This document shows positions 1,815 to 43,149 of a stretch of DNA of 43,377 bases, piece after piece (position 1 is the stretch's first letter; every line of letters begins with the position of its first letter). The translations under genes were made by a program, and so were the position numbers. The stretch is from Rhizaria sp. SCN 62-66. Its lineage: Eukaryota. Under the pieces are notes generated by a model. That model had not been told where the DNA came from, did no database searches, and was given only the letters and a program-made list of their open reading frames with translations. The stretch lies in NCBI GenBank assembly GCA_001724265.1, contig MEDY01000264.1:1-43377 (forward strand), given 5' to 3'.

Positions 1815-4800
1815 ATGTACAGTCACGTTTTTGTGCGACTCAAGTCGCGTTTCGGGCAGAAGCCCTCCGAGGGTCTGGCTAACCGCAAGAGCGTGGACGC
1901 CGACGCCAGCGCCAAGCTCCAGGGTTACATCTCCGAAGTCATGAACTTCTCCCACTGCCCCAACAGCTTCGCGTGGAAGCTTGCGCACCCGGTCAACAGC
2001 CCCGCCGAGATGCCCGCGGCTGTGCGCGACGTGCTCGTCACCTCTGCCAAGGTCGAGTCCTTCTCCCCGGCCATCGTCACAGTGCCTGCGGGCGTCGCTC
2101 CGCCCGTCGCGGCTCCAGGCGCCGCCGCGCCCGTGTTTCCCGACCCCGCGGTGCCGCTGCCCGCGTTCACCGCGGCGCCCACGGACGAGACGCTGCCCGT
2201 CCCGACCTTCGACGAGATCATGGCGGGCTTCGAGCGCCTCGTCCAGTCTCTGCCGGCCGACTCGTTTACGTCGTTCTCACTCAAGCTCAACCCTTTCCGC
2301 ACAGGCTGCATGCCCGCGCGCGAGCTTGCCGTGGCGCTGCGCGACGCGATCATCGCGCGCATGGAGAAGGACGACAAGTGGTATGACCGCTCCTTCACCG
2401 CCAAACGTCTCACGGAAGAGCTGCAGCAACGTCTCACCGCAGAAGCTGAGGCGCGCGGCGCGTCGGCCGCCGAGATCGCCGCCGCCAAGGCCGCGAAGCT
2501 GCCCTCGACGCCGTTCTACCTCGATATGACGCGCGCGATCGGTTTCTGGTCTCCCGTCTCCGAATCGGGCGGTTCCGTCGCCGCCGCGATCGCCAACGAG
2601 CCCTTCTCGGCCAAGGGCCGCGCGCGGTCAGACGCTGAGAAGCGCGTCGCTGCGGGCAAGTCGGACCCGCGCACACGCGTCGCGGACCGCGTGGTTGCGG
2701 TCAAGATTGGCGAAGTGTTCCTCAAGAAGGGCAATCGCTCCAAGTTCGTGATGCAGCTGCAGAACAACATCCAGCACAAGCTCGGCGGCCGCGGCCAGGT
2801 GAAGCGCGAAAACCACAACTTCCTCGTCGTGCCGCCCGCCGCCGCTCCGGAGGGGTACGTGTTCACTGACGACGACTTGGAGTTCATCATCGAAGCCGTC
2901 AAGTGCGTCGCCGGCGTCGATACCGTGTCCCCTGTGATCCGCACCGGCACGGACATGGCTTCGCTGGTGACGGCGTACCAGTATCTCTGCGCCGTCGCGG
3001 GCGCCAACAACGAGCACCCCGTCACCGCCGCGGCGCCCGTCGCCTCGCCGTCGATCCTGTACACGCCGGCCGACGCGCGCGCCGCGGCCGCGATGCTTTT
3101 CGCGCCCGCCTCCGCACGCTACGCCGCCGGTGTGACACCCCACGAGCTCGAGCTCCGCGCCGCCGCCGCGGACTCGCTGCTCAGCGTCACACGGCTCGGC
3201 GCGCGGCTCGACGTGCACCTGCACTCGTCGCCGCTCTACACGTCCAAGACCACGCTTGCGCGCGAGCTGGCGGTGGCGGCGCGCAAGGAGACCTCAGTGC
3301 TCGTTGGCGGCTCTGTCTTCATCCCGCACCCCGGTCGCGTGTACGCTGAGGAGCAGGAAACCGCGGCCGCCGAGCGCGCCGCACGCCGCGAGGCTTTGCT
3401 CGCGGACTACACTGCGCAGCGCGCGAAGCTGCTGGCGGCCGAGTCTGGTGTGTCTGCCGAGTCCGCGGCGGAGGAGGCCGCCAAGGACGCCGCCGCCGCG
3501 GTCGCCGCGCAGGCCGCCGCCGACGCCGCCGCGGCCGCTGCGGCCGAGAACGCGTCCACGTGGGTTGCCCCGCGCTCCGGCGCCCACCTGCGGCTCGATG
3601 TGACGGAGCACGTCGCGTACTTGGGCTTCAGCAGCGGCCCGGATTACATCGACGCGATCGGTGGCCAGCCCACGGCGACGGGCGGTGAGACGCAGACCGT
3701 TGTCGCGCTGCTCTCGGGCGGGATGGACTCCCCCGTTGCGGCGTTCTCCATGATGCGCCGCGGCATGCGCGTCATTCTGGTCCACTTCCAGAACGCGAAC
3801 CTCGCCGACGAGGACACGGTCAAGCACAAGATCGTGCAGCTTGCGGAGCGTCTGTCGCGGTACCAGATCTCCACAGTGCTCCACATCGTGCCTTTCAGCG
3901 CGATTCAAGACGCGATCATCATGGAGGTACCGTCGCCGGCGCGCATGCTCGTGTACCGGCGCTTCATGTTCCACGTCGCCGCGCTCGTCGCGAACAAATA
4001 CAACGCGCGTTTTCTTGTGCTGGGCGACGCGCTCGGTCAGGTCGCGTCACAGACTGCGTCGAACATGTTCGCGTCGTACATCAACACGCCGCTGCCTATT
4101 CTGTCCCCGCTCGTCGGCTCCAATAAGCGCGACATCATGGCGACGGCGGAGAAGATCGGCACGTACGCAATCTCCGCGCTGCCGTACGGCGACTGCTGCT
4201 CGTATTTCCTCGCCAAGCACCCGCTGACCAAGATCAAGCCTGAGGTGCTGTCCTCGTACGAGGCCGCGGTGGGCGCCAAGTCCCCCGGCGGCGCGCTCCA
4301 GCTGGTGCGCTCGGCCTTCATCGCGTCTGCGATCTTGCGTTGGGAGCGCGCCGACGGCTCGCAAGAGGTGTTGCGCGAGGTTCAGCCCGTGCAGTCGGTG
4401 TACCACGAGCAGGTTGCGAAGCTGCTTGAGTCGTGCCCGATGCGGCCCCGTGACGCTGATGACGACGATGAGGGCGGCGACGACGCCGCGGACGACGAAG
4501 ACGGCGCTGCTGAGGGCAAGGGCAAGGGTAAGGGCAACAACAAGAAGGACAAGAAGGGCGGCGACAGCGCTGCTGCTGCAGTAGTGGAGATGAGTGACGA
4601 CGCCGTCCTCGCCGGCGCCAGCGCGGCCGCCGACGACGCCGGCGCGGTCATCGACATCAACAGCGCGCGCGACGCCTGTAGTACCGAGGCGGGCGACGCC
4701 GCGGGCCCGCGTGTGAAGCGCGCGCGCGGACTGCACGGCGGTGAAGTTGAGGTTCCCGGTCAGCTGCGGCTCGGTTCTGCTCTGCGCCACACCGGCCTCT

Positions 4801-6821
4801 CTGTGTACAACCCCAACTTCCTTGCCTCGCTCAACAACGGCACCAACGCCTCTGCTGGCGGCCACAACAACAGCAGCGCTTCGTCTGCGTCTGCCCGTGC
4901 TGCCGGGATGACTGACGGCGAGGATACCACGACCCCGCTGACCGCGCTTGCCGACATGGCGTCTTCGACCGCAGTTTCAACCGGCGCCGCGCTGCCCGCC
5001 CCGCGCGCCGCGACGACGCGCGCGTACTTCGACAACGCGGCCACCACGCCGCTGCTGCCGCGCGCGCTGGCCGCGATGCTGCCGTTCCTCGGCGGCGCGG
5101 CGTTCGCGAACCCGTCCTCACAGCACTCTGCGGGCCAAGGCACCGCGGCTATAGTCGATGAGGCGCGCCGCGTGCTGCTGGGTCTGCTCAACGCCCCCGT
5201 GGCCGCCGCAAGCCAGGTCTCGCACGAGGCCGCCGCGGCGTCCGCTGCGGCCGAGACCGGCAAAGTCGGGCTCGCGGGCAAGAAGGGCAAGGACCAGCTG
5301 CTCGCCTTCACCTCCGGCGGCACCGAGGCCAACAACATGGCCATCATCGGCGCCGCACGCGCTGCCGTCGAGCGCGCGGTCAGCGACGTGCGCGACGCCG
5401 GTATCGCCGTCGCCGGCGCCCGCGCCAGTGCAGCGGGGACGGCGACCGCGCTCGCGGCCACCGCGTACACGCACCTGCGCGTGCACCTGGTGACGTCGGG
5501 GCTGGAGCACAACGCCGTGCTCGAGGTCGTGCGCGCGCTGCAGACGTCGCCACAGCTCCTTGCGGGGGGCACGAACCGGCCTGCGAGCAACGTGACACTG
5601 GACCTCAACGTCAAGGTCTCGGTCGACGTGACGTACGTGCGCAACAACACCGCTGGCGTGGTCGATGTCTCGCACGTCGAGTATATCCTCGCGCAAGACA
5701 ACCAGCGGCTCGCCAGCGCGCGCGCCGTGTCGGCCGCCGCGGGGTATCTTAACAGCGCGCCTATGTCCGAGACCGGGTACCCGTCGGTCGCCACGCCTGT
5801 CCTCACACTCGTGACGCTGATGCACGGCAACAACGAGGTCGGCACGCTCCAGCCGCTGGCGCGCATCGGCGCAGCGCTGGCGAAGCACCGCGCCGCCGGG
5901 GCCGCGGCCGTGCCCACGGTCTTCCACACCGACGCGTGCCAGTCGTTCGGCAAGGTCCACCTCGACGTGCGTGAGTGCGCGCTGGACCTGGTCTCGATCA
6001 ACGGACACAAGCTCCACGGCCCCAAGGGCGTCGGCGCGCTCTACGTTCGCCCCGGCGTCGCGCTTAGTCCGCTCGCGGTTGGCGGCGGCCACGAGGGCGG
6101 GGTGCGGCCCGGCACGCTCAACGTGCCTGCAATCGTCGGGTTCGCCGCCGCCGCCGCGGACACCTTCGGCGTTACGACGTCGCTGCTGGATCCAGCACTG
6201 GCGCCGCTGCCGGTCACCGCGCCGCTCGTCCGCGCCGTCGCGCCCCTGCCGACGTCGCACTTGGTGGCGTCGCGCCCCGGGATGCCGCTGCCGAGTCTCC
6301 GCGGCGCGCTGGTCGATATCGCGCGCTTCGTCAAGACGGTGTTCCCCCGCGCGCATATCAACGGGCCCTTCGCCACCGCCGTGCCATTCGCTGCCTCGTC
6401 CCCTGCCTCAGCGGCAACGGCTGCGACGGACAGTGACGAGGCCGAGGCCAAGACTGCTGCGAGCGCTGCTGAGGCCGCGACGGCGCAGGAGCAGGAGCAG
6501 GAGCAGGGCGTCCAAAGCGCTCTGCCCAACATTCTCTCCGTCACTCTCGACCGCTCCGGCTGGCTCGACGCGTCGACTCTGATCAAGTTCATGTCTTCCC
6601 GCGGTGTCGCTGTGTCATCGGGCTCGGCCTGCGCGTCCAACGCGGAGCCCGCGCCGTCGCACGTGCTGCTGGGTATGGACGTGCGTGCCGAACAGGCCAA
6701 CGCCACGGTCCGTCTTTCGCTGGGGCGCATGACTACGCCCGAGGAGGTGGAGCACCTTAAGAAGGTGCTGGGCGAGGTTAGCGCGCTCAAGGAGAGCCGC
6801 TTCAAGCCCCTTAGCCGGTAA
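1815..6821 (+). CDS. thiI: Fusion protein: ThiI-type tRNA 4-thiouridine (s4U8) synthase (two NFLD/THUMP modules + PP-loop catalytic domain) joined to a C-terminal PLP-dependent group I cysteine desulfurase (NifS/IscS/NifZ-like)
   Basis: ThiI motifs: KIGEVFLKKGNRSKF (~2703), PP-loop LLSGGMDSPVA (3714-3731), GDALGQVASQT, KIGTYAISALPYGDCC (DCC at 4191-4199), KHPLTK. Desulfurase motifs: YFDNAATTP (5025), NPSSQH, FTSGGTEANN, EHNAV, MHGNNEVGTLQP, FHTDACQSFGK, PLP lysine in GHKLHGPKG (6009), catalytic SSGSAC (Cys 6630-6632), PSHVL, VRLSLGR. One uninterrupted 1668-aa ORF ending TAA. Confidence 0.93.
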   Translation: MYSHVFVRLKSRFGQKPSEGLANRKSVDADASAKLQGYISEVMNFSHCPNSFAWKLAHPVNSPAEMPAAVRDVLVTSAKVESFSPAIVTVPAGVAPPVAAPGAAAPVFPDPAVPLPAFTAAPTDETLPVPTFDEIMAGFERLVQSLPADSFTSFSLKLNPFRTGCMPARELAVALRDAIIARMEKDDKWYDRSFTAKRLTEELQQRLTAEAEARGASAAEIAAAKAAKLPSTPFYLDMTRAIGFWSPVSESGGSVAAAIANEPFSAKGRARSDAEKRVAAGKSDPRTRVADRVVAVKIGEVFLKKGNRSKFVMQLQNNIQHKLGGRGQVKRENHNFLVVPPAAAPEGYVFTDDDLEFIIEAVKCVAGVDTVSPVIRTGTDMASLVTAYQYLCAVAGANNEHPVTAAAPVASPSILYTPADARAAAAMLFAPASARYAAGVTPHELELRAAAADSLLSVTRLGARLDVHLHSSPLYTSKTTLARELAVAARKETSVLVGGSVFIPHPGRVYAEEQETAAAERAARREALLADYTAQRAKLLAAESGVSAESAAEEAAKDAAAAVAAQAAADAAAAAAAENASTWVAPRSGAHLRLDVTEHVAYLGFSSGPDYIDAIGGQPTATGGETQTVVALLSGGMDSPVAAFSMMRRGMRVILVHFQNANLADEDTVKHKIVQLAERLSRYQISTVLHIVPFSAIQDAIIMEVPSPARMLVYRRFMFHVAALVANKYNARFLVLGDALGQVASQTASNMFASYINTPLPILSPLVGSNKRDIMATAEKIGTYAISALPYGDCCSYFLAKHPLTKIKPEVLSSYEAAVGAKSPGGALQLVRSAFIASAILRWERADGSQEVLREVQPVQSVYHEQVAKLLESCPMRPRDADDDDEGGDDAADDEDGAAEGKGKGKGNNKKDKKGGDSAAAAVVEMSDDAVLAGASAAADDAGAVIDINSARDACSTEAGDAAGPRVKRARGLHGGEVEVPGQLRLGSALRHTGLSVYNPNFLASLNNGTNASAGGHNNSSASSASARAAGMTDGEDTTTPLTALADMASSTAVSTGAALPAPRAATTRAYFDNAATTPLLPRALAAMLPFLGGAAFANPSSQHSAGQGTAAIVDEARRVLLGLLNAPVAAASQVSHEAAAASAAAETGKVGLAGKKGKDQLLAFTSGGTEANNMAIIGAARAAVERAVSDVRDAGIAVAGARASAAGTATALAATAYTHLRVHLVTSGLEHNAVLEVVRALQTSPQLLAGGTNRPASNVTLDLNVKVSVDVTYVRNNTAGVVDVSHVEYILAQDNQRLASARAVSAAAGYLNSAPMSETGYPSVATPVLTLVTLMHGNNEVGTLQPLARIGAALAKHRAAGAAAVPTVFHTDACQSFGKVHLDVRECALDLVSINGHKLHGPKGVGALYVRPGVALSPLAVGGGHEGGVRPGTLNVPAIVGFAAAAADTFGVTTSLLDPALAPLPVTAPLVRAVAPLPTSHLVASRPGMPLPSLRGALVDIARFVKTVFPRAHINGPFATAVPFAASSPASAATAATDSDEAEAKTAASAAEAATAQEQEQEQGVQSALPNILSVTLDRSGWLDASTLIKFMSSRGVAVSSGSACASNAEPAPSHVLLGMDVRAEQANATVRLSLGRMTTPEEVEHLKKVLGEVSALKESRFKPLSR

Positions 6822-6867
6822 GCACTTAGATGTGCTGCGCTGTGCTGTGCTGGGCGAGGTCAGCGCG
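6765..6867 (+). repeat. 21-nt direct repeat spanning the CDS end and 3' UTR (GTGCTGGGCGAGGT[T/C]AGCGCG at 6765-6785 and 6847-6867)
   Basis: Two copies with one mismatch read directly from the sequence. Confidence 0.75.
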
Positions 6868-7381
6868 ATATATATTGTCTGATGGGGGGTGAGGTTGAGA
6901 GCCACCTGTCGTAATTATTGTATGTTTGAGAGATTTTGTTGTTTCTGTATGATGTTGTGTGTTGGTTGATCGTTAAGCTCGCACACACACGCACAGATTA
7001 CGTATGGCGATGAATTTGCTGTAGTCCTAGTTGTTGTTCTAAAACAATTTTCAAGACCTTTTATTTTAAAAAAAAGGTTGTTCGTTATTTGGTTTTCATA
7101 TTTTATTTGTTGCAATCGCACGTATACTCAGTAAACTTAACATAATACAAGTTGTCTTCAAGCAAAACACGTATTATTACTTTGCTTTGTACATGTATTG
7201 CTTTGTATTGCTATTGTTTTGCCATTGGCCTGCTGCATAACCCAGTCCAACACTGCACTGATTAGAATAATATTAATAAGAGCAACGTGAGAGCATTTAC
7301 TTGCTTCCACACAGATTCACATTGCACTTTCCGGACAAGAGCACTAAACTAGCGGCGTAACGAGAACACCTATCGCACAAC

Positions 7382-8306
7382 TCATTTGTTCTTACCTGCC
7401 GCCTCATATGTAGCCCAGTCAAACGCGGCCAGCCTCTCCTCCTCCGACATCTGTCCCGCGCGCGCGGCCTCAATGGCGTCAGCCTCGGCGCGCTCCCGAA
7501 GCGACGGCCCCGTCCCGCGCGGCAGCAGCTTCATGTGCGTCGGGGGGAAGATGACTGCGCGCGCTGCGCCGAGGACGAGGTGTGCGTAGGTGGAGCCGAA
7601 GTCGCGCGAGTCTTGCGATGCGGGGCCGTTGTCGCCCTCCAGCCACACGCGATTCGCCGGGACCGTGCCCTATGATAATCCGCGAACAAAGCAAGAATGA
7701 AGCAAAGAGCAAGTGAGTTTGAAGGAGGTGGCATTGATTTGACGACAGTGAGGCGAGGTAGACACGAGATAAAACAGGAAATGAGCAATACACGGATGAT
7801 GATAACGTACGGAGATAGCAGTGCCGGAACGAAGACGCGAGTGAACAACGTCACCAGCGATGCCGAGAACGCGCTTCACAAGCGTAACGTTGGGGTCATA
7901 CGGCGCTGAAATGCATACGATGTCACCCACGCGCACGTCGGCCGGCGGTATGCGCTCCAGGAGGAGCAGATCGGGCAAGCGTGCGTCCGGGTCGGGATTC
8001 AGCGTCGGTGCCATTGACTGGCCAACGACTGGGGGCGCGTGACAGCGTGCAAAGGGTGCGCAGAGAGGGAACAGTGTTGAGTTTCGCACATGAGCCCAAG
8101 ATAAGAGAAGGGTTGAGTGAGCGAGATATCGAGCAAGCAGAAAGCAATGCCACTAAAACACATTAGAAAATAACCAGATTCAAACATAACATGCATGAGA
8201 ACGTACCAACGGTAGGAACAACGAAGTGTGTGGAGAAAACAGTGGCTGCCATGAACGGGACAGCGACACTGCCAACCACCTTTAGGAGCGAGCTGAATTG
8301 AGACAT
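7382..8306 (-). CDS. Mitochondrial inner membrane peptidase subunit (peptidase S26, IMP1/IMP2 family, IMP2-like); exons 8306-8207, 8028-7811, 7669-7382; 201 aa
   Basis: Spliced protein MSQFSSLLKVVGSVAVPFMAATVFSTHFVVPTVVVGQSMAPTLNP...GDIVCISAPYDPNVTLVKRVLGIAGD...GTVPANRVWLEGDNGPASQDSRDFG...IFPP. Catalytic Ser (GQSM) and Lys (VKRV) present. Both introns are GTACGT..AG with matching phases (1 and 0). Stop TGA. Confidence 0.9.
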
Positions 8307-8905: not shown

Positions 8906-11900
8906 TTAGAACTTGACGTACGCGTAGAGGTCGGCCACGGTCTCAATCTTGTCCCAGCCGGCCATGGAATCGTTCCAGCAATACGTCTCGCCAGTCAATC
9001 CCTGCGCCTTGTACGCGGCGCGGAACTGCGCCTTATCAAGCGGACCCTGCTGCGCGCTGGCGCCGTCGATGTAGTACCACTGCAGGTGGTCGGGCGGGCC
9101 CGCGGGCATGACGGGCACCGGCGCGGGGGCCGGCATCGCGGGCGCCGGGATCGGCGGCGGCGGCGCGGCGATGACGTGCGAGCTCGGCCGGCGCGGCACT
9201 GCGGGGCCCGGGCCAGCAGTGAGGTACGACCCAGCCGGAGCAGGCGCGGGGGCGGGGGCGGGGGCAGCGGCGGGCTGGAAGGAGCCGAAGCCGGGCTGCG
9301 CCGGCTGAGGGCGCGCGCCGGTGGGAGGACCGGGGTACGCAGTGGCGCCGGCGCCGGCACCGTAGCCGGCACCGTAGCCAGGCTGCTGCTGCTGGAAGCT
9401 GTTGGAGCCGAAAGGCGCGGCGAGCGCGGCGCGCGGGTTGGCCTGCATCTGATTGGCGTGCTCCTTCATCCGCACCTCGGCCTTGGCGAGCTTGGTCTTG
9501 TAGTCATCGCAGTCGAGCGAGTCCTGCTGCGCAATCCACATGTTGATGTCCGACTCGGTGGGGAACGAGTTGCGCATGCCGAGGTACATCGTCTTGTGCA
9601 TGAGGTTGATGAACTTGCGCGGCACGCGCGCGCACTGACGGAAGAACATCTGGAGGTAGTTCTCAAGCATCTGCGACGGCGGGAAGCAATGCAGACAGCA
9701 CAGCATGAGGTTCCAGCCGCGGGCCACGGAGTCGGGGTTCTGACTCTTGTTCTCGCGCAGCTGCTTGATGATCTGGCAGTAGGCTTCGTCGCGGAGCTTC
9801 TCAGAGCGGAGGCAGTCGGTAAGCATCTCAACCGCGAGCATGACGGGCGCCTGCTGCTTCTTGTCGCCCATGAAACCGAGAACGTTCTTGAACATGCGCT
9901 TGGCGTGCGAGTACGTCTCCTTGTCCATCTTCTCGTCGATCTGCGTCAACGGGGCGTGGATCGTGGAATCGGTCCAACGCAGCATGCCAGCCGCCAGCTC
10001 GTCACGGTCCCACGCCAGCAGCTTGATATCGGCCCACACGGCGGGCGGGAAAAGCTGGGGGAAGTTGACAAACTCGAACATGTTGCCCGACTTGTCGAGG
10101 AACAGGTCCTTGATGCGCACGGTGCGAGCCTGGATGAGCTCGGGGTCCTTGAGCAACACGGCCTTCTTGAGCTGCAGCTTGACGAAATCGTCCTCGGAGG
10201 TGTTGTAGAGCAAACGACGCAGGTTCTCGACGCGCTCGCAGGTGAAGTTAGGCAGCGCATCGGCGCGCTCGATGATGGCCTTCATGTGGACTTCGTCGAG
10301 GACCTTCTCCTGCTTCTCCGCGTCGGCCGTCACGGCGTCGCGCACAGCCTTGGCCTGGTAGTAGAGCTGGCGCACCTGGTTCGCGGCCGCCGACTTGAGC
10401 TCGATGTCATCGGCCGAGGCCACGGCAGCCTGGAACTCAGAGTACGACTCCTGCACGTCGTAGGTGACGAGCACAAGGAACAGCGCCTCGAGACGCTTCT
10501 CTTCGCGGAACACGAACTTCATGCGCTGCGCCTGCTTGAGCTCGTAGATGGGGAAACCAATGGCGCCGGCCTGCGCGATCGCGGCGTCGATCTGCTCGAT
10601 CGAGCGCGAGTCCACCGCGGCCTTGAGCAGAGGACGGAACTTGAGGCAGCGCTCGCGCAGGTAACGCGTCAGCACGCGGCGGCAGTACTTCTGCGCAAAA
10701 GTCGTGACTTCATCGACGGCGAGGTTACGCTTGAGCTCCATCTCGCGGTGCTGCTCGGCGCGGTACAGCACGCGCGTGGCGCCGATCTGCACGTCGGTGA
10801 GGTTAAGCCCCATGAGCTGGATCAAGTACTTGCAGTTCTCGATCACGCGACCGTCCCACTGGCGGTCCTTCTGCAGGCACTTGTAGCGCTTGAAGAACTC
10901 GGTGTGCGTGTACCGGAACGGGAAACCCTGCTTGCGGATCGTCACAGCCTCGAACACACCGGCGTACTGGAGCTGCTCGAGCGTCATCTGACCGTAGAGC
11001 TGCATCGGCGCCTTGTTCGGGTTCGGCTTGACGCAGCGGATGTAGTGCGGCTCGGTGGCGTTGAGCGCAGTCATGAGCTCGTTGAGCTGGCGGGCGAACT
11101 TGGTGCCTAGCGTCGCGCGCGTCGCCTGCGTGCCGTCGTTGAACAGCGTGTTAAGGAAGCTAAACTGCGAGCGCTGGAGGATGGCGTGTGCGTCGTCGTT
11201 AAGCTTGTCACGGTTCTTCTCCAGGAAGCCCGTCGAGTCGTAGCGGACCGTGCCGGCGTAATGCTCAACGATGAACATCTTGGGGTCCTTCATGAAGGGC
11301 TTGAAGTAGTCCTTGTTCTTGCTCTGCGCAGAGACGAGCTTGTCCACGAACGTCTTGTCGGAGCCCTTGGGCATGCGGATCTCTTCGTCGACCATGGGCA
11401 GGATACCGTAGGGGCGCATCTCGATGAGGTCAAGCACGGGCTGGTTATCGATGTAGTTGACGTGGGTGAAGTTGATGCCTTCGAAGCGGTACAGCTCCTC
11501 TTCCTTCTTGAACGTGTGCTGGTTGAAGAACTGCTGTAGCTTCTCGTTGGTGAAGTTGATGCAGAGCTGCTCGAACTGGTTGTGCTCGAAAATCTCAAAG
11601 CCGAAGATATCAAGAATGGAGATGGTCTGCGGGCGCGCGTCGTTGCCCTTGCCGATAGACTGGTTAATACGCTGCACAATCCAGTCAAACATCTTCTCGT
11701 AGATGAACTTAGCAAGCGCATCACGCGCGGCATCGGCCTCCTCCTTGGAGAGGAACACGTCGATGTCCTGCTGGCCCGTCACGCGCATGACACGCGTGGT
11801 GACAGCTTTGGCGAAGCCAACGGGGTCGAGCTGAAGCAGCGCGCAGGCAGTCTGCAGCGGAGCCTGGGACACGACCTCGCACTGGCGGTCGCCAGTGGCG

Positions 11901-13669
11901 CGAAACTGCAGGTTACCGAGGTGGAGGATACCGGCGAGCGTGCGCTGCAGGTTCTCGATCTCGTTCTGCGCCCAGCCGAGCTCGCGCATGGCGTTGAGCA
12001 CTTCCTCGTAGTCGGCCACGTCGTCGACGTCGTCGACGCTGTCACAGCCGGACTGCGAGAGGTACCAGTAGTCAGAGACCTGGCCGATCGACAGCTGCTG
12101 GCGCAGCGCGGCGGGCGCGCCGCGGCAGAGCTGGTAGAAGGCGTGGTAGTTACGCTCGCCCTGGGACTGGGTCACGACGCGGATCTTCTCGAGTAGGTAG
12201 TTTGTGTTGGTGGAGCCGGAGATCTGGGCGCGCTGGTCAAAGTAGATCTCAACGTACTTGCCGAACCGGGACGAGTTGTTGTTGCGCACCGTCTTGGCGT
12301 TGCCAAAGGCTTCAAGAATGGGGTTCGACGCCAGGATCTTCTGCTCGACGTTGGAGGTCGACGAGCCGGCGATTTCGGCGATATACTGGAGTGCCTGCTT
12401 CGTGCACTCGGTCTTACCGGCACCGGACTCGCCGGAGATGACGATCGACTGGCCCTGTCCGGTCTCGAGCAGCTGCTTGTACGCGTCGTCGGCGACGAGG
12501 AACACGTGGGGCGGCAGCTTGCGGTTGCCACGCCGGATGTACTCCTCCATCACACCGGGCGTGTAGAGCGGGAGACGCTTATACGGGTTGATAGAGATCA
12601 AAATGGTGCCAATCGCGGTGTAGATCTCGTTGGACTCAAAGCGCTTGGTGAGGTTGTAGAGAATGAGCGGCTTGTTCATGACATCGAGCATGACGAGATC
12701 CTGCTGCAGCCGCTTGAGCTGGAGCCACTTCATCTGATCCAGCTCAGCGGCCTGCTTGGCCGTGAACGTGAGCTGCTGGCCCTGCTCCGTCTCGACCACC
12801 ATGCGGCCACCGGCGTTGGACACGACGCGCGCGGGCACGTAGCCGTGCATCTCGTGCGGCGCCCACACCCAGTCGCCAGCGCGCTCGTAGTCGTCCTGCG
12901 TCTTGAGCTCGTTGGGCTTCTCCCACTGCGTCTTCTGCGTCTTGATGTTGTAGTAGTACTCCTGCCCGTCGGCGGACTTGAGCGCCTTCCACCCGTGATC
13001 GGGCTCCGCGCGGCGCTGGATCTGCAGCGGCTGGGAGAAGTTCTGTCCCGACGACACGGGCTCGGGCGCGCCGAGCTTTTCGACGCCCATGTGCTGGCGT
13101 GCACCCTGTTGCTGCGAGGCGGCCGAGATGGCCGCGCCAAGGCCCATCGACGACGCGGGCGCTGCGGCGGGTGCGGGCGCGGACGCGGGCGCGGGAGGCG
13201 AGTAAGGCGCTGAGTACGGAGCGGCGGCGGGCGCGGGGGCGGGGGCAGAGGCGGGCGCCGGGGCAGCGCGCGGGGCGCCGCCACCGACGCCGCCGGCCAT
13301 GCCGCCCGCGGCGCCGCGGTTGGCGGCCATGGCGGCGAGCTTGGCGGCGAAGTCTGAGTTGCCGCCCATGGGGCCGCCCATGCCAGGCAGCGCGCGCGGG
13401 GCAGCGGCGGCAGCGGGCGCCGCGGTGGCGGCGGGCGCGGCCATCGGCGCGGGGGCGGGCGCGGCGACGGGAACGGGTGCGGGAGCCGGGCGGAGACTGT
13501 CGACGAGACCAGCGACGTTGGAGATCATGTCCCAGTTGGCCATGTTGGCGTTCCAGCAGTAGGAGCCCGTGTTGACGCTGTTAGACTGGAACAGCTGGGC
13601 AAACTGGGCCTGTGTGACAGGACCCTGCTGGCCTCCCTGAGCGTCCATGTAGTACCATTCGTCACTCAT
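8906..13669 (-). CDS. Unconventional myosin, class-IV-like: GYF_2 - Pro/Ala linker - WW - SH3-like N-term - motor - IQ-like - MyTH4 - Pro-rich - GYF_2; 1587 aa, no CDS introns
   Basis: Motor motifs GESGAGKTE, LEAFGNAKTVRNNNSSRFGK, LDIFGFE, FEQLCINFTNEKLQQFF, HYAG, PHYIRCVKPN. WW: GWKALKSADGQEYYYNIKTQKTQWEKP. MyTH4: LRDEAYCQIIKQL...GWNLMLCCLHCFPPS. GYF_2-like WYY..QQGP...YCWN..M..W at both ends. Stop TAA. Confidence 0.95.
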   Translation of the reverse strand: MSDEWYYMDAQGGQQGPVTQAQFAQLFQSNSVNTGSYCWNANMANWDMISNVAGLVDSLRPAPAPVPVAAPAPAPMAAPAATAAPAAAAAPRALPGMGGPMGGNSDFAAKLAAMAANRGAAGGMAGGVGGGAPRAAPAPASAPAPAPAAAPYSAPYSPPAPASAPAPAAAPASSMGLGAAISAASQQQGARQHMGVEKLGAPEPVSSGQNFSQPLQIQRRAEPDHGWKALKSADGQEYYYNIKTQKTQWEKPNELKTQDDYERAGDWVWAPHEMHGYVPARVVSNAGGRMVVETEQGQQLTFTAKQAAELDQMKWLQLKRLQQDLVMLDVMNKPLILYNLTKRFESNEIYTAIGTILISINPYKRLPLYTPGVMEEYIRRGNRKLPPHVFLVADDAYKQLLETGQGQSIVISGESGAGKTECTKQALQYIAEIAGSSTSNVEQKILASNPILEAFGNAKTVRNNNSSRFGKYVEIYFDQRAQISGSTNTNYLLEKIRVVTQSQGERNYHAFYQLCRGAPAALRQQLSIGQVSDYWYLSQSGCDSVDDVDDVADYEEVLNAMRELGWAQNEIENLQRTLAGILHLGNLQFRATGDRQCEVVSQAPLQTACALLQLDPVGFAKAVTTRVMRVTGQQDIDVFLSKEEADAARDALAKFIYEKMFDWIVQRINQSIGKGNDARPQTISILDIFGFEIFEHNQFEQLCINFTNEKLQQFFNQHTFKKEEELYRFEGINFTHVNYIDNQPVLDLIEMRPYGILPMVDEEIRMPKGSDKTFVDKLVSAQSKNKDYFKPFMKDPKMFIVEHYAGTVRYDSTGFLEKNRDKLNDDAHAILQRSQFSFLNTLFNDGTQATRATLGTKFARQLNELMTALNATEPHYIRCVKPNPNKAPMQLYGQMTLEQLQYAGVFEAVTIRKQGFPFRYTHTEFFKRYKCLQKDRQWDGRVIENCKYLIQLMGLNLTDVQIGATRVLYRAEQHREMELKRNLAVDEVTTFAQKYCRRVLTRYLRERCLKFRPLLKAAVDSRSIEQIDAAIAQAGAIGFPIYELKQAQRMKFVFREEKRLEALFLVLVTYDVQESYSEFQAAVASADDIELKSAAANQVRQLYYQAKAVRDAVTADAEKQEKVLDEVHMKAIIERADALPNFTCERVENLRRLLYNTSEDDFVKLQLKKAVLLKDPELIQARTVRIKDLFLDKSGNMFEFVNFPQLFPPAVWADIKLLAWDRDELAAGMLRWTDSTIHAPLTQIDEKMDKETYSHAKRMFKNVLGFMGDKKQQAPVMLAVEMLTDCLRSEKLRDEAYCQIIKQLRENKSQNPDSVARGWNLMLCCLHCFPPSQMLENYLQMFFRQCARVPRKFINLMHKTMYLGMRNSFPTESDINMWIAQQDSLDCDDYKTKLAKAEVRMKEHANQMQANPRAALAAPFGSNSFQQQQPGYGAGYGAGAGATAYPGPPTGARPQPAQPGFGSFQPAAAPAPAPAPAPAGSYLTAGPGPAVPRRPSSHVIAAPPPPIPAPAMPAPAPVPVMPAGPPDHLQWYYIDGASAQQGPLDKAQFRAAYKAQGLTGETYCWNDSMAGWDKIETVADLYAYVKF

Positions 13670-18740: not shown

Positions 18741-21155
18741 TCACTTGCGGCCACCACGCGTCTTGGCACCAACAACCAGCGTCGCACCGGGCGCGAAGTT
18801 GTACGCTGCGAGCGAGCTTGCGTCCTTGTTCAAGTACACGCCGTTCGAACTCACCTTCATCTTCTTAGCCGGGAACCCGCCCAGCAGCCCCTCAATCAGC
18901 GTCTTGACGTCGCCCGCCGTCGTCGCGAGGCCCTGCGGCAGCTCGAGCTCCACGCGCTGGCCCGCGCAGCCGAACTCGTCCGCGCCCTCGCCCGCCGCGG
19001 GCGCCTGTACAGTGAACGTGACGGGGCCGGGGTGCTGCGCCAGCCAGTCCGCCTCCGACACCAGCGCCGCCGCCGCCGCCGCCGCCGCCGCCATCGATCC
19101 GCTGACGTAGTTCGCGGGGGCGCCAATGACAGGTCCGGAGACGATCGCGGGGCCCAAGCCGTGCGGCAGCGGGGGAAGCGACACCTCCGCGGCCGCGGCG
19201 GCGGTGTTGGCGGCCGTCTGCTGGCTGATGGCATCAGCGGTGCGCGCGCGCTTCATAGCCTGCGACAGCGCCTCTGCGCCACCGGCGATCGCGGCCGCGA
19301 CGGAGCCCACGCCACCAGGCAGCGGGGGCGCGAAACCCTGCGCAGCCGCGGCAGTCACGGGCACTGCCCCCGCTGTCCCCGCAGTCCCGGCAGTCGCTGC
19401 GGTCGATGCGGAGGCAGTGGAGACGCCGGGGCCGAGTGCGGGGCCGGCAATTGCGCCCGCGGCGGCGAGCGGTACCGCGGACTTGGTGACGTTGATCGGC
19501 AGCCCCGTCGCCGAGGCGAGCGACGCGGCCACGGCGGCAGCAGCGGCCTCGGCGGGGGCGGAGACCGCCGCCGCGGGCGCGGGCGCGGCGCCGGCCTTGC
19601 GTTGCTGGCTGCCCTTGGCAAGCGCGGCGGCGATGGCCTCGCCCGTGGCGAGCGACGAGTCGGCCTTGCGCGCCTCGATGGCCTGCTTCTGCTCGCGCCA
19701 CCGCGGGTCGAGCAGCTCGATGCGCATGTGCTCCTGCAGCTGCGCGGTCGGCACCAACGTCTTGCAGATCGGACACACCTGTGTCTGCGCGGCCGCCAGC
19801 ACGGCTGCGGTCGTCGACGGCGCCACGGCGGCCACCGCAGCGGCGGCGGCGGCGGTCGCGGCAGCGGCGGCGGCGGCGGTGAGCACGGCCGCGGGCGCTT
19901 CCTCTCCGCGCATGGCGCCCGTGACGGCGTCGAGCTCGCCCGCGGCCGCGCCGGCCCCCGCGGCCGCGGCGGCGGCGTCGGCGGCGTCGGTGGCCACACC
20001 CATCTCTGCGGCCAGCGCGGCCTGGCGTTCGGCCTCGGCTTCCGCGGCGGCCTCTGCGGCGTCGCGTGCGGCGGCGGCGCGGAGTGACAGCGCACGCACG
20101 ATGGCGTCGATGCCCTGCTGCGGCTCGGGCAAGTATGCGTCCTCCTCGGGCGCGAAGTGGACCGTCTCGACAACGGCGAAGTCGTGCCAGTCGACCTGCA
20201 GCATGCGCACGGCCTCGGCCTCCTCCTCGGCGGCGCCGGCGGCCGCGGCGGCCTTGAGCGCGCGCGCGCGGTGCGCATGCCGCCGTAGCAGCGCGACCAG
20301 GTCTGCGCCGCCCAGCCCGAGGGCCTCGTGCGCGCGCTCTAAGTCGGCGAGCGTGGTCGCGATCTGACCCGCGGTGCCGGCGGGCGGGACGAGGACCGAC
20401 TTGTAGGACTCGACAAGGGCTTGGAAGTAGACGAAGTTCGGGTGCGTGGGCTGGAGGAAGTCGAACGCAGCGGGCGGCAGCGGCCACCAGTCGGCCTCGG
20501 TGCCTTCGCCGGGGCCGGGCGCGCGGCCGTGAGCGCGGCGGCGCGCGGCGTCGGCGAGCGCGGCGAGGAAGCGGCGACCGTTGCGCGCTACAGTGAGCGC
20601 GGTGAGCTTCACGATGTCCAGGTCAACCGCGGGCGCGGTCGGGGGGTGGCGCACGGCAAAGCGGGATGGCAGCACGGGCGGCGCGGGCAGCGCGGCGGAC
20701 TCGGCCACGGCGGCGCTGGCGGCAGCGGCAGCGGCGGGCGGCGCGGAGGGAAGGTCAGGCAGAGCGGCGCGGTGGACCGAGGCCATGAGACGCTCGTACA
20801 GAGTCGGAGGCTTCGCGGGCGCGACGGGCTCGGCCGCCGCGGGGGGCTCGGCGGACTCCGCGGCGGCGGAGGCGGTGGCGGCTGTTGCGGAGTCGGGGAG
20901 CACGAGAGCGTCGCCGTGGAGGATGCGCTGGCGATAGTAAACATGATACGGGTGCGAAGGCTGCAGGAAGCCGAACTGGGGGACGTCCTTCTTGGCGGCC
21001 ATGATCTTTGCCTCAAAGGATGGGCCCTTGGTTTTAACGCTATCCGCGGTGAAGTCAATCGTCTTGCGCTCTTCGATCGAAGGGACAATCATCGGCGCAT
21101 CAGGCGCGCCTGCTGCGGGAGGCACACCGGATGCGCCTGCAACGGTTGTCGCCAT
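18741..21155 (-). CDS. SF3A1: Splicing factor 3A subunit 1 (Prp21/SF3a120), 804 aa
   Basis: Two SURP domains (IDFTADSVKTKGPSFEAKI...FGFLQPSHPYHVYY; DLDIVKLTALTVARNGRRFL...FDFLQPTHPNFVYF), VDWHDFAVVETVHF, CPICKTLVP..LQEHMRIELLDPRWREQK, C-terminal ubiquitin-like domain ending RGGRK. ATG 21155 follows a CCGCAG acceptor-like site at the AT/GC boundary. Stop TGA. Confidence 0.95.
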   Translation of the reverse strand: MATTVAGASGVPPAAGAPDAPMIVPSIEERKTIDFTADSVKTKGPSFEAKIMAAKKDVPQFGFLQPSHPYHVYYRQRILHGDALVLPDSATAATASAAAESAEPPAAAEPVAPAKPPTLYERLMASVHRAALPDLPSAPPAAAAAASAAVAESAALPAPPVLPSRFAVRHPPTAPAVDLDIVKLTALTVARNGRRFLAALADAARRRAHGRAPGPGEGTEADWWPLPPAAFDFLQPTHPNFVYFQALVESYKSVLVPPAGTAGQIATTLADLERAHEALGLGGADLVALLRRHAHRARALKAAAAAGAAEEEAEAVRMLQVDWHDFAVVETVHFAPEEDAYLPEPQQGIDAIVRALSLRAAAARDAAEAAAEAEAERQAALAAEMGVATDAADAAAAAAGAGAAAGELDAVTGAMRGEEAPAAVLTAAAAAAATAAAAAAVAAVAPSTTAAVLAAAQTQVCPICKTLVPTAQLQEHMRIELLDPRWREQKQAIEARKADSSLATGEAIAAALAKGSQQRKAGAAPAPAAAVSAPAEAAAAAVAASLASATGLPINVTKSAVPLAAAGAIAGPALGPGVSTASASTAATAGTAGTAGAVPVTAAAAQGFAPPLPGGVGSVAAAIAGGAEALSQAMKRARTADAISQQTAANTAAAAAEVSLPPLPHGLGPAIVSGPVIGAPANYVSGSMAAAAAAAAALVSEADWLAQHPGPVTFTVQAPAAGEGADEFGCAGQRVELELPQGLATTAGDVKTLIEGLLGGFPAKKMKVSSNGVYLNKDASSLAAYNFAPGATLVVGAKTRGGRK

Positions 21156-21485: not shown

Positions 21486-24400
21486 TCACTGTGGGCCGTG
21501 GCCCTGTCCCGAGCGCCCATACATCGCGGGGTACTGCATCATATGCATCCCTTGTGGCATCCCCTGTGGCATGCCCGGAGGCATCGTCGCCTGCGCGCTC
21601 GGCGCCATCAGCTGTCCGGGCGTGGAGTACCCCGCGCGTGATCCGAGGGACGGTGCCCCAGACAGGAAAGTCGGCATGCCCCCAGTCGCGGGCTGACCAT
21701 AGCCGTGCGGGACAAACATCTGCTGTTGCACTTGCACTGGCGTCTGCGCACGCTCTTGCTGCACCGCTTGTTGCGCGAGCAGCTCTTGCTGTTGCTGCAG
21801 CATCTGCTCCTGCTGTTGCTGCTGTTGCGCGATCAGAACTTGCTGCTGCTGTATATGCTGCTGCTGGAGCTGCTGCTGCTGCAACTGCTGCTGCTGCTGA
21901 ATCTGCTGCGCAACGAGATATTGCTCAATCAGATTCCCTTGCGCCGCTTCGAGCCCGACGCCTCCGAGCGCCGACGCGCCGTACACGCCATACGGCCCCG
22001 CATTGAGGTCGTCAAGAGCACTGACGTCAGCAAGCCCAACACTGCCGAGCGCGCCGAGTCCCGGGCCGTAGCCCGCCGCTGCCGCTGCGGCGGCTGCGGC
22101 GACGGCGTTCATGTCGACCTGGGGCAAGCCCGAAGCGCTGAGCGGGAGCGAAAGCCCTACGCTCGCGGCAACCTCGGCCGCCACGGCATCCGCAACCGCC
22201 AAACCACCACCTGCGGCAGCGGCGGCTGCGCGCGCGTTGGCGTCCGCGGAGTCTGCGTCGGGGCCGAACTCGCCGCCGTTACCTCCAGAGCCCGCGGCGG
22301 CGGCTGCGGAGGGCAGCGCCGGGTACTCCGACCCCGCGACGCCGAGAGCAGAGACGAGATGCTGTGACATCCCGGGGGGCGCAAGCACACCTTCGCGCTG
22401 CGCCTGGAGCAGCTGCGCCACGGACTGAGCCGCGAGCCCGTCTGCGAGCCGCTGCACGCGCAGGTTCGCGTTGTGCGCCGCCAAGAGCGTCTGCGCAAGC
22501 TGTTGCTGCAGTGCGACGTGCATGGACCCGATGCGCTCGGCGTAAGAAGCGAGGAGCTGCACGAGCTCAGCCGCGCCGGCGACACCGCCCGCGCCATCAC
22601 CGCCGCCACCGAGGCCGAGGCCGTTGTTGTCATGTGCCACGAGTCCGCTGGGCCCGGGGCCGGGGCCGTAGCCACCGCCGAGCATTCCGCCCAGACCGGC
22701 AGCGCTGAGACCGGCGGCGCCAAGTCCACTGGGTGCGCCGAGCCCCCCAGGGCCGCCGAGACTACCGGCGCCAAGGCCGCCGGCGAGCCCTTGCGGCGTG
22801 AGCCCCTGTTGCGGGATTCCTGGCGGCTGGAGCCCGGGCTGCTGCTGCTGTTGTTGTTGTTGCTGCTGCTGCATAAGGTTCGCCAGCGGGAGCCCGCCGG
22901 GCATGTTATGCGGCAACAATCCAGCGGCGGCGCTCTGCATCTGCATGCCGGGCGGCATCAGACTCGGCGATGGGAGCCCGCCGTGCTGCACTCCGGGCGA
23001 CTGCAGTCCATGCGAAGGCAGACTCGCCGCCTGCATGCTGGGCGGCTGCAGACTGACGCTGTGCGACGCCATGCTCGGCGGCTGCAGGCTCGGCGGCTGC
23101 ATACTGCGCGAGGGCAGACTCGGCGGCAGCAGACTCACCGGTGTGCGCGCCTGGCCCTGCGAGTGTGGCAACTGCGGCACGCGCATCACGCCCGGAACGC
23201 GTGGGGTACCCGCGACCGGCTGCGGCTGCGATGGCGGGCCAGAGGGCCAGTTCGCGAACGCCTGAGGCTGCGGCTTCTGTTGCTGTTGCTGTTGATGTTG
23301 TTGTTGCTCTTGCTCTGGCTGTGGTTGCTGAAGCTGTGCAGCGGCATCATTGTCGTTTTTGCCGCCGCCGTCGGCGTCCGCCGCAAGAGGTGGCACATCC
23401 CCATCGTAGTCCGTGTCGCCAGGCTGAGGCTTACGCTCAGGATCGTCGAGTGCGTCGGCCTTCTCAGACGCTCCATTATCGCCTTTAGGACCGTTATTGG
23501 ACGCAGTGTCAGCGTTGGCCGCGTCACCGGCGGCATTGTCGCCGCCCTTGCCGTCATTGTCACCATCGCCGTGGTCTTGATCATGATCTGGCTCTGGACC
23601 CTGCTCTTGGTCGAGATCGAGCCCCACTGCAGGTTTGGGCAGGTCGTCAACTTCACCGTTGCCTTGCTGCCCACGGTCACCCTGCTCACGGTCACCAGAG
23701 GCGACGCTAGCCGCATCAGTCCCAGCAACCTGCGCCTGGCTTGCCGTCAGAGCATCAGCAGCAGCCTCAGCTTGCTTCGCTGCAAGCGCGGCTTCCTGCG
23801 CAGCAGCCTCCCTGGCGCGCGCGATCGCCTCCCGGGCAGCCTCTTTCGCGGCGGTGTCCTTGGCGACCGCGAGCGCAGAAGGTGCGTTGAGCGCCAGCGG
23901 TCCGCCGGGGCCGGACACACCAACGACGGGGGACATAAAGCCGGCGTCGCTGGCTACGCTCGCCATGTACGACAGCGGCGGCCGGGAGCCAACGCCGTTC
24001 GCGCCCGCGTTTCCGTTCGCTGTGGCTGCATTTGTGGCGGAGGAGACGGACGCGGCCGCCAAGGCCGGCGCTGCGGGCGGCAACGCCCCCACACCCCCGA
24101 CGCCGCCGAGGCCCGCATTGCTGCTGAGCGCGAAGCCGCCGGGCGCGGAGCTCGCGCTGGAGCTAGCGCCGGCGCCCGCGAGACTGGGCGGCACGGGGGA
24201 AAACGTCACCGCTGACGCAAACGGAGGCGCGGCGAGCGGCGCAGCGGAGAGGGCCGCAGGGGCCTTGCGTTCACCGATCTTGCGGTAACCGCCGCCGCCG
24301 CCGCTCGCACCCACTGCGACGCTCGCGCTGATGCTGGCGGTGGCGCTTGCGCTGGCGGTGCTGGGTGACGGAGTGCCGAGAGCAGGCTTCGCATTGCCTG

Positions 24401-30400: not shown

Positions 30401-30797
30401 AGGCGCCGGGCAGCACTGCGAGGGCGAGGGAGGCGGCCGCGTGGGGCGGTGACGCTGCGGCTGCTGCGGCGTTGGAGGAGACTACAGCAGCGGCCGCGGA
30501 GGCAGACTGCGCAGATAGGAGCGGGAGGGGGTGCGACAGCGCCGAAGGGACAAACATGTTCTCAACAGGCGCGGCGCGAGCGGCGACGACGGGAGACCGG
30601 CCGTCGAGAACGGCGCCTGAGAGCAGCGAGACTGACGGGGACAGTGGGGAGAGCGGTTGCAGCAGGCTGCCGGACGAGGCGACGGTTGGTGCGGACAGAG
30701 ATGTGTCTGATTGGGCCTTAAGTGGCGCCAAGTTGGCGAGCCCATCGCGGGGCGCGTTGAGGGACGCACCCGACGGCGATGACTCACGAGCAGACAT
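21486..30797 (-). CDS. Giant low-complexity (Ala/Ser/Pro/Gly/Gln-rich) protein of unknown function; 3103 aa if the single in-frame TAG at 28943-28941 is read through
   Basis: ORFs 28941..30797 and 21486..28877 are in the same frame, separated only by one TAG. Uniform GC-rich composition bounded by AT-rich flanks. ATG 30797 has an upstream in-frame TGA; terminal TGA at 21488-21486. No recognised domain; a short predicted helical segment (ELVQLLASYAERIGSMHVALQQQLAQTLL) and a Gln-rich C-terminus. Confidence 0.7.
27841..27921 (-). repeat. Degenerate 21-nt tandem repeat (4 units) encoding PGLPPSS-PGLPPSS-PAPPQSS-PALPQS
   Basis: Plus-strand units such as gacgactgcggcggcgccggt / gacgacgggggcaggcccggc / gacgacggcgggaggccgggc. 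Confidence 0.75.

Positions 30798-43113: not shown

Positions 43114-43149
<36 letters not shown>

Follow-up and report, generated by a model that had tools for sequence, protein, structure and literature searches.

The ThiI-cysteine desulfurase fusion gene and its domains

We analyzed a stretch of 43,377 nucleotides (nt) of DNA, hereafter the window, which corresponds to positions 1 to 43,377 of contig MEDY01000264.1 (assembly GCA_001724265.1; Rhizaria sp. SCN 62-66) and originates from a bioreactor/wastewater metagenome. On the forward strand of the window, positions 1815..6821 are occupied by a single uninterrupted open reading frame (ORF) of 1668 amino acids (aa), stop codon included, as given by the ORF list and its translation. 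The product of this gene, termed P0001 here, unites ThiI, the enzyme for 4-thiouridine (s4U) in tRNA, and a cysteine desulfurase (CD) in one polypeptide. Overall, the protein comprises two successive modules of an N-terminal ferredoxin-like domain, termed NFLD, plus a THUMP domain ([NFLD-THUMP]x2), a PP-loop domain, an acidic Ala/Gly linker of ~240 residues, and, lastly, the CD.

All of the features below lie on the forward strand. Module 1, an extra N-terminal NFLD-THUMP-like RNA-binding module (residues 1-260; 1815..2594), was recognized from a predicted model, structure alignment, and hhalign. Module 2, the canonical ThiI NFLD plus THUMP with Ala-rich helical insertions (residues 285-625; 2667..3689), was recognized from the Pfam family ThiI_fer, a motif, and structure alignment. 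The ThiI PP-loop domain, which serves adenylation and thiolation (residues 626-824; 3690..4286; PF02568 and a match to the PDB entry 2c5s), carries the motifs SGGMDS (residues 634-639; 3714-3731) and GQVASQT (residues 741-747; 4035-4055), as well as Cys794-Cys795 (4194-4199). The C-terminal tail of ThiI and the low-complexity acidic/Ala/Gly linker together span residues 825-1065 (4287..5009), have no domain match, and include a basic patch, KRAR (residues 968-971; 4716-4727). The rest of the protein is a group I (NifS/IscS-like) CD with three insertions (residues 1066-1668; 5010..6818; PF00266), in which we located His1232 (5508-5510), the Lys that binds pyridoxal phosphate (PLP), Lys1399 (6009-6011), and the catalytic Cys1606 (6630-6632).

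The Pfam scan of P0001 matched PF02568 (ThiI) at residues 626-816 with an E-value of 2.8e-57, PF22025 (ThiI_fer) at residues 294-372 with an E-value of 1.4e-08, and PF00266 (Aminotran_5) in three stretches with an E-value of 2.7e-36. No rhodanese family was among the matches. When P0001 was compared with the PDB, the best solved match of the ThiI part was Bacillus anthracis ThiI (2c5s; 160.8 bits), and cysteine desulfurases were the only proteins among the matches of the CD half. Ala amounts to 18% of the residues. When P0001 is set against compact homologues, its Ala-rich stretches prove to be insertions. In the model of one such homologue, P0044 (see below for the details), the stretch equivalent to the linker is disordered, with a predicted local distance difference test score (pLDDT) below 50 at residues 575-644.

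Catalytic residues and class membership

In the alignments made through our own hidden Markov models (HMMs), Cys344 of Escherichia coli ThiI fell on Cys794 of P0001, and His104, Lys206, and Cys328 of E. coli IscS fell on His1232, Lys1399, and Cys1606, respectively. GDCC (residues 792-795), GHKLHGPKG (residues 1397-1405), and SSGSAC (residues 1601-1606) are found in P0001. Across 14 aligned family members, S-G-G-x-D-S, Q-V-A-S-Q-T, and D-C-C of the PP-loop domain were invariant (14/14), and H-K of the CD was nearly so. The cysteines of P0001 are at residues 48, 165, 364, 392, 794, 795, 874, 955, 1375, 1388, and 1606, and no C-x-x-C is present anywhere in the protein.

P0001 possesses typical features of ThiI, namely the PP-loop domain with SGGxDS, the equivalent of Cys344, and NFLD and THUMP (by structure). 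Likewise, the PLP Lys, the acid-base His, and the SSGSAC-type Cys place its C-terminal part among the group I CDs. The archaeal TtuI/ThiI class depends on a CxxC and a Cys that make up a cluster site (PMC9825150, PMC5372739; here and below, the statements drawn from cited papers refer to the available parts of their texts), and this [4Fe-4S] TtuI signature of CxxC plus a third Cys is lacking in P0001. Among the NCBIfam models for CDs, the best was TIGR03402 (NifS) with 226 bits, below the cut-off of 530.75, so that P0001 does not qualify as a NifS (nitrogenase-type) equivalog; the compact relatives scored 325-380 bits with this model. The IscS models gave P0001 199 and 180.5 bits, and in four compact relatives TIGR02006 gave 276-302 bits, in each case below the protein's own score with the NifS model. 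P0001 does not qualify as an IscS/Nfs1 orthologue either, with a score below the cut-off (180.5 bits against 643.2 for TIGR02006) and a place outside the clade of E. coli IscS. Long insertions interrupt the matches, and we attribute to them that every NCBIfam score of P0001 stays below the cut-off.

A preliminary description of this locus, made from the sequence alone, had proposed a single chain carrying ThiI and a group I CD, and the ORF, the Pfam matches, and the catalytic residues bear this out. The domain order agrees with its placing of the desulfurase at the C-terminus, where E. coli ThiI has the rhodanese domain. The Pfam scan agrees with its rhodanese-less ThiI, and the Ala-rich insertions it had noted are evident as well. 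SGGMDS, GQVASQT, DCC, the PLP Lys, and the Cys of SSGSAC were all found at the residues listed above, and an archaeal-type CxxC is absent as described. As for the "complete ThiI" with one NFLD/THUMP, the completeness stands and the single module does not, two tandem modules being seen in the model. Of the Pfam families that it had named for a search, PF02568 and PF00266 were matched and PF02926 (THUMP) was not called, though THUMP was found by structure. Altogether, the domain-level reading was correct, and the gene is real.

Tandem NFLD-THUMP modules

Structures were predicted for P0044 (1028 aa; mean pLDDT of 80.1) and for residues 1-640 of P0001 (mean pLDDT of 74.7). Both models contain two successive units of beta-alpha-beta-beta-alpha-beta plus alpha-beta-alpha-beta-beta. 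The residue ranges given here were taken from VIA-align. Residues 285-621 were aligned with residues 3-174 of Thermotoga maritima ThiI (4kr7) with a Z score of 13.9 and a root-mean-square deviation of 3.3 over 164 aligned residues, and residues 291-629 were aligned with residues 3-194 of B. anthracis ThiI (2c5s) with a Z score of 12.8. The motif GEVFLKKGNRS of module 2 is at residues 299-309. Module 1 (residues 3-258) was aligned with residues 1-143 of Trm11 (6zxv; Z score of 10.7), and also with TrmN (3tma; 9.9), CDAT8 (3g8q; 9.4), and Trm14 (3tm5; 9.2). The ThiI structures 2c5s, 4kr6/4kr7, and 1vbk each align to one module of P0001, not both. In the model of P0044, the CD was superimposed on human NFS1 with a TMt of 0.88, and the ThiI part on 4kr6 and 2c5s with TMt of 0.88 and 0.84, respectively.

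By hhalign, the N-terminal extension of the family to which P0001 belongs (type A; see below) matched the N-terminal profile of stand-alone ThiI with a probability of 95.3% and an E-value of 2.1e-08, and its match to the second module of the same family was weak (12% probability). The duplication is founded on the structure and on the match to stand-alone ThiI, and not on a direct likeness of the modules to each other. The models thus place a second, N-terminal NFLD-THUMP module at residues 2-259, which goes beyond the preliminary description. With such a tandem THUMP, a single chain could bind tRNA in the way that ThiI dimers do across their subunits.

Contiguity, RNA, and genomic setting of the gene

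An orthologue of 1595 aa, P0003 (a JGI record), is 61% identical to P0001 over 100% of the length and colinear with it, and the two proteins share both the start (MYSH...) and the end (...RFKPLSR). Run X3 of a separate study supplied a 6356-nt DNA contig that spans 3562-7300, differs from the window at one place, and thereby includes the PP-loop domain, the linker, the CD, and the 3' flank. From run X5, a polyA metatranscriptome, there are contigs at 1500-2156, 2410-2816, 3277-3866, 4363-5051, and 5808-6213. The contig at 4363-5051 bridges residues 850-1079, that is, from the tail of ThiI through the linker into the start of the CD. The contigs of four runs all break in GC-rich repeats of Ala codons at ~2976-3562. 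We considered the reported joints as introns and rejected this idea: their sides are 20-23 nt long and lie in GC/Ala-codon repeats, and several of them replace sequence rather than skip it.

The genes around the fusion gene are eukaryotic, as had been proposed from the sequence. On the reverse strand, Pfam identified a myosin (8906-13669) with Myosin_head, MyTH4, WW, and GYF, as well as a PRP21/Surp splicing factor (18741-21155). The host-like composition claimed for the gene is likewise confirmed, its GC fraction of 0.66-0.72 being inside the range of 0.59-0.78 in the other GC-rich, ORF-dense kilobase windows around it.

Two families of ThiI-desulfurase fusions

Residues 600-1668 were searched against 1.84 billion representatives, and the best 150 matches listed included many long proteins with two domains. 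Of 25 homologues scanned with Pfam, 21 had both domains, 12 of them in the order of ThiI->CD (hereafter type A) and nine in the order of CD->ThiI (type B). Our own HMMs, run over all of the fetched sequences, detected 48 two-domain proteins (23 of type A and 25 of type B). The former include P0001 and its identical copy P0002, so that at least 22 distinct type A proteins are known. The named sources of type A are eukaryotic, namely two EukProt records, one of which is a complete transcript ORF, and a metagenome-assembled genome (MAG) of Cercozoa; the taxonomic range of both families rests on the few named records. P0044 is a EukProt transcript with a complete ORF and has the same architecture as P0001. 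A basic [KR][KR]x[KR] patch was found in the linker of eight of the 13 proteins in subclade A1, and the linker is otherwise acidic and unconserved.

Type B proteins, such as P0066, P0172, P0199, and others, constitute a second fusion family found in eukaryote transcriptomes and Bacillota. The named records of this type include EukProt entries (e.g., P0066, labelled Rmarinus). The best type B cluster in the Atlas, 804 aa long with 76 members, is labelled Bacteria and contains Aminotran_5 in 88%, ThiI in 68%, and ThiI_fer in 58%. THUMP was called by Pfam in seven of the nine type B proteins scanned. We regard type A and type B as independent fusion events. Furthermore, as the halves of type B group with or near the nifZ-thiI genes of Bacillota, eukaryotes appear to have taken up the s4U machinery at least twice.

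Phylogeny of the two halves

For comparison, we used the 80 best prokaryotic ThiI loci. A ThiI-CD fusion was found in none of them (0/80). A separate CD gene was found beside thiI in 22 of the 80 loci, which belonged to Bacillota plus one Nealsonbacteria, and this gene was constantly upstream of thiI (22/22).

The ThiI tree was inferred from the PP-loop region with IQ-TREE under the LG+C20+F+G4 model by a short search, and FastTree agreed with it. All of the 18 type A rows and nine stand-alone ThiI sequences grouped together with a support of 87% in the Shimodaira-Hasegawa-like approximate likelihood ratio test (SH-aLRT). The nine stand-alone sequences include those of an Iainarchaeota MAG (L002) and of P0012, named Woesearchaeota. 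This group was nested in a larger one, supported at 97, with Aenigmatarchaeota and bacteria of the candidate phyla radiation (CPR). The ThiI of the Bacillota operons and of bacterial type B were placed elsewhere than type A, and E. coli ThiI formed a very long branch. In the CD tree, all of the 15 type A rows grouped with six unnamed stand-alone CDs with an SH-aLRT of 90, and its sister, with an SH-aLRT of just 80, was a clade of Bacillota NifZ-like and type B sequences that was itself supported at 96. The E. coli IscS clade (SH-aLRT of 98) excluded type A. P0047, a bacterial type B protein, had Desulfoscipio as its partner in the ThiI tree, whereas the CD tree placed it within the NifZ-like clade of Bacillota, and we regard the type B fusions as the ones that fit an origin by operon fusion.

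Judging from these trees, both halves of type A are of prokaryotic type, ThiI being nearest to the DPANN-archaeal/CPR-type sequences and the CD to unnamed NifS-like enzymes. The prokaryotic relatedness that the preliminary description expected of both halves is thus upheld, the nearest stand-alone relatives being prokaryotic in the separate trees. Since the two half-trees are congruent, we propose that type A arose by one fusion event from prokaryotic-type parts, apart from the nifZ-thiI lineage. That both halves came from one DPANN donor is unsupported: the CDs of the genomes with DPANN-like ThiI (L097-L102) formed a 99-supported set of their own in the FastTree analysis. PDB bit scores of the CD (169 for 9wep, 161 for Archaeoglobus fulgidus IscS2, 152 for human NFS1, and 143-145 for E. 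coli IscS) do not discriminate among the candidates, and we rejected them as a guide to its origin.

Proposed function of P0001

We propose, at a probability of roughly 60%, that 1815..6821 is a true nuclear gene, transcribed in a microbial eukaryote that is uncultured, and encodes a self-contained 4-thiouridine synthetase. With the gene, its contiguity, the RNA contigs, the domain folds, the catalytic residues, and the family membership observed here, we infer for P0001 a sulfur relay, a substrate, a product, and a cellular compartment as follows. Its function is likely self-sufficient synthesis of s4U8. The C-terminal PLP-dependent CD would take sulfur from free cysteine and carry it as a persulfide on Cys1606 of the mobile SSGSAC loop. 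The sulfur would then pass to Cys794 of the PP-loop domain, either in the same chain or between the chains of the dimer that group I desulfurases form, and Cys794 may receive or resolve the persulfide. Meanwhile, with a tRNA bound to the NFLD-THUMP modules, the PP-loop domain would have adenylated one uridine of this tRNA (most likely U8) at C4, and thiolation of the adenylated uridine would yield s4U. The fused CD would thereby fill the role of the rhodanese domain plus IscS in E. coli or of the separate NifZ in Bacillus. A predicted complex between the CD (residues 644-1028) and the PP-loop domain (residues 340-565) of P0044 had a score of 0.00, which gives no verdict either way.

As the fold begins at residue 2 in the model, P0001 has no N-terminal presequence, and the linker's KRAR/KRxR patch is a possible nuclear localization signal. 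The absence of a presequence and the basic patch are a hint, not evidence, of action in the cytosol or nucleus. The sequences suggest that some protists make s4U, which is regarded as a tRNA modification of bacteria and archaea that eukaryotes lack. The broader proposal, that diverse protists possess a dedicated single-chain s4U synthase with tandem THUMP, no presequence, and a possible nuclear localization signal, which acts on nuclear-encoded tRNAs, is tentative, and we would put its chances somewhat short of even.

A number of observations weigh against the proposed synthetase. s4U is unreported in eukaryotes, though the genomes of some eukaryotes contain ThiI homologues (PMC5372739, PMC7694415). 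Neither the doubled THUMP module nor the linker of 240 residues has a characterized precedent, so that the substrate or the site could differ from U8 of tRNA. THUMP (PF02926) was not among the Pfam matches of P0001 at E<=0.01. With TIGR00342, the NCBIfam model for ThiI, P0001 scored 213 bits against a cut-off of 264.5, as the insertions leave just the profile positions 161-364 matched; among the relatives, P0044 passes with 303.2 bits, and P0007 (215.6) and P0046 (241.9) are below the cut-off. The X5 contigs are fragmentary, with no cover at 4158-4354, at 5143-5339, and beyond 6325, and X5, although an RNA library, may hold DNA. As for the origin, the supports of the key groupings are moderate (SH-aLRT of 80-90 by short searches), and type A1 is unresolved from the DPANN-like clade. 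The CD half of type A is 33-46% identical to every reference group, and the CD of P0044 is 38-39% identical to human NFS1, equal to any other solved desulfurase. The trees contain no eukaryotic Nfs1, for which the E. coli IscS clade is a proxy. The claim that the CD is distinct from Nfs1 holds as far as this proxy clade and the score of 180.5 against 643.2 bits go.

Alternative explanations

The window comes from a metagenome, the contigs of four runs break at ~2976-3562, and many short-sided joints are found there, all of which might suggest a chimeric assembly in which a prokaryotic ThiI and CD were attached to DNA of a eukaryote, or else a pseudogene in decay. We regard both as extremely improbable. 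The ORF is free of stop codons over 5 kb with the catalytic residues intact, it has an orthologue that is colinear and 61% identical, and its domain order is seen in at least 22 distinct proteins, some from eukaryote transcriptomes. Moreover, a fusion was absent from the 80 prokaryotic loci, and the joint sides of just 20-23 nt in repeats are a pattern typical of other organisms or repeats. The colinearity of P0003, the X3 contig through the PP-loop domain, linker, CD, and 3' flank, and the X5 contig that bridges the linker speak against the split halves or chimera that the preliminary description had named as fatal to its reading. The gene is not an assembly artefact. The same description derived the fusion from a NifZ/ThiI-like pair, and the corresponding explanation has a Bacillus-type nifZ-thiI pair come from bacteria and read-through turn it into a single fused enzyme. 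In B. subtilis, a dedicated NifZ is indeed encoded beside a rhodanese-less ThiI (PMC5372745), a CD gene adjoins thiI in 22 of the 80 prokaryotic loci, and the type A CD is sister to the Bacillota NifZ-like/type B clade, at just an SH-aLRT of 80. Nevertheless, the CD gene is upstream in 22/22 loci but follows ThiI in the window, the type A ThiI belongs to the 97-supported DPANN/CPR-type group rather than to the Bacillota operon clade, and the type A CD is outside the 96-supported clade of NifZ-like and type B sequences. Type A thus shares with the Bacillota operon lineage neither the CD clade, nor the ThiI clade, nor the order of CD then ThiI, and it is type B, as exemplified by P0047, that suits an operon fusion. 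We consider this origin improbable.

An unlikely explanation, albeit the least so of the three, is that the enzyme is active but acts on something other than U8 of tRNA, be it a different uridine, a different RNA, or a sulfur acceptor that is not RNA, to which the second THUMP module and the long insertions would direct it. The tandem NFLD-THUMP is absent from all of the matched ThiI structures, and module 1 resembles the modules of Trm11, TrmN, Trm14, and CDAT8, which are methyltransferases and a deaminase working at other tRNA positions. The reviews that report no s4U from eukaryotes would agree with such retargeting, as would the mention, in a review on THUMP, of ThiI paralogues of unknown activity (e.g., PH1313). 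On the other side, the PP-loop domain retains all of the ThiI-specific motifs and the Cys344 equivalent, and module 2 aligns, with the Z score of 13.9, with the tRNA-binding NFLD-THUMP of T. maritima ThiI. The role of E. coli ThiI in thiamine synthesis requires the rhodanese domain (PMC9825150), which P0001 lacks. A thiamine role is not expected for P0001, and we retain the self-contained s4U synthetase as the preferred reading.

Comparison with known systems

The protein is best described as a variant of the known system of ThiI plus a dedicated desulfurase, in a single chain, with the order reversed and THUMP doubled, in protists. The nearest counterpart is the pair of NifZ and ThiI in B. 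subtilis and B. anthracis, in which a dedicated group I desulfurase feeds a rhodanese-less NFLD-THUMP-PP-loop ThiI with the Cys344 equivalent. The two B. subtilis proteins suffice for s4U8 by direct transfer from CD to ThiI, although how the persulfide is transferred is still unresolved for this pair (PMC5372745). P0001 differs from the pair in being one polypeptide with ThiI first and the CD last, the reverse of the operon, and in having the extra NFLD-THUMP, the linker of ~240 residues, a eukaryotic host, and non-Bacillota clades. E. coli ThiI plus IscS shares with P0001 the PP-loop chemistry, the Cys (Cys344 = Cys794), and a sulfur-delivering module C-terminal to the PP-loop domain, but this module is a rhodanese persulfide carrier in E. 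coli and a whole PLP desulfurase in P0001. The archaeal [4Fe-4S] TtuI/ThiI of Methanococcus and Pyrococcus is also a rhodanese-less NFLD-THUMP-PP-loop protein; in contrast to P0001, it needs CxxC plus Cys. The type B fusions of Bacillota and eukaryote transcriptomes have both enzymes in one chain as well, but in the order of CD->ThiI and with halves that group with or near the Bacillota operon genes.

Another fusion in eukaryotes, the "IscS-TtcA" of Aplysia (bioRxiv 10.64898/2026.09.27.754811), combines a class-V desulfurase-like domain with a bacterial-type PP-loop tRNA thiolase through a poorly conserved linker and has been proposed to be dedicated to one thionucleoside. It differs from P0001 in that the thiolase is of the TtcA family, makes s2C32, and is Fe-S dependent, in the CD-first order, and in that its desulfurase, by the preprint's account, has no canonical catalytic Cys, whereas the CD of P0001 retains Cys1606. 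ThiI and s4U are unmentioned in the available text of this preprint. In the Atlas, eukaryotic clusters of 1026-1339 aa with Aminotran_5 and the PP-loop family ATP_bind_3 (Oomycota and Arthropoda) correspond to this CD-TtcA fusion family.

A remark on "two protists out of 60 eukaryotes" reportedly goes back to Kotera et al. in 2010. That work and the supplements are outside the full-text literature found, in the available parts of which a ThiI-desulfurase fusion is not described. The preliminary description, which had considered the fusion to be possibly new, is right to this extent, but the fusion is not a one-off, since at least 22 distinct proteins share the architecture. What is new relative to the first reading is the tandem NFLD-THUMP, the type A family of at least 22 members, and the non-Bacillus type of the pair, and the novelty is tempered in that the sequences are present in databases and ThiI homologues of eukaryotes had been remarked on before.

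The type A family turns the old remark on eukaryotic ThiI homologues into a concrete and testable form, an enzyme that comes with a sulfur donor of its own, is conserved, keeps its active sites intact, and is seen in RNA libraries selected for polyA. If a protist s4U synthase acts on nuclear-encoded tRNAs, s4U would be present in eukaryotic cytosolic tRNA and installed without Nfs1. An active enzyme would give protist tRNAs a near-UV-sensitive thionucleoside, and 4sU tagging and photoactivatable ribonucleoside-enhanced crosslinking and immunoprecipitation (PAR-CLIP), which presume zero endogenous s4U, would need controls in such organisms. Type A would also be the second case, after CD-TtcA, of a eukaryotic CD coupled directly to a bacterial-type PP-loop tRNA thiolase, and its compact members of ~1030 aa are handy for studies of direct persulfide transfer from CD to ThiI.

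Neighbouring genes and other fusions

No tRNA genes were detected in the window. The myosin encoded at 8906-13669 is 1587 aa long and has an unusual set of domains, comprising GYF-type (two stretches, the best one C-terminal), WW, Myosin_N, the motor, and MyTH4. Long GC-rich ORFs without a Pfam match at E<=0.001 are present at 21486-28490 (2334 aa) and 28941-30797 (618 aa) on the reverse strand and at 32299-41040 (2913 aa) and 41142-43217 (691 aa) on the forward strand. A 139-aa ORF at 7673-8089 on the reverse strand matches part of Peptidase_S26 (profile positions 27-87 of 168; E-value of 2.9e-08) and probably represents a single exon of a gene with introns, the lone hint of an intron among the neighbours.

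Among the sequences collected here, ThiI and CD were also found in fusions of other kinds. A CD is C-terminal to a molybdopterin oxidoreductase (PF00384/PF01568) in the bacterial proteins P0004, P0005, P0167, and P0164, one of which is of Gemmatimonadota. ThiI is fused to NUDIX (PF00293) in P0205, P0210, and P0225 and to PF01791 in P0267 and P0293. Finally, many proteins of ~870-900 aa in the range P0223-P0299 are fusions of ThiI with PF01116, the family of class II fructose-bisphosphate aldolases, and with PF08013, and the named ones are of Acidobacteriota or Vicinamibacterales.

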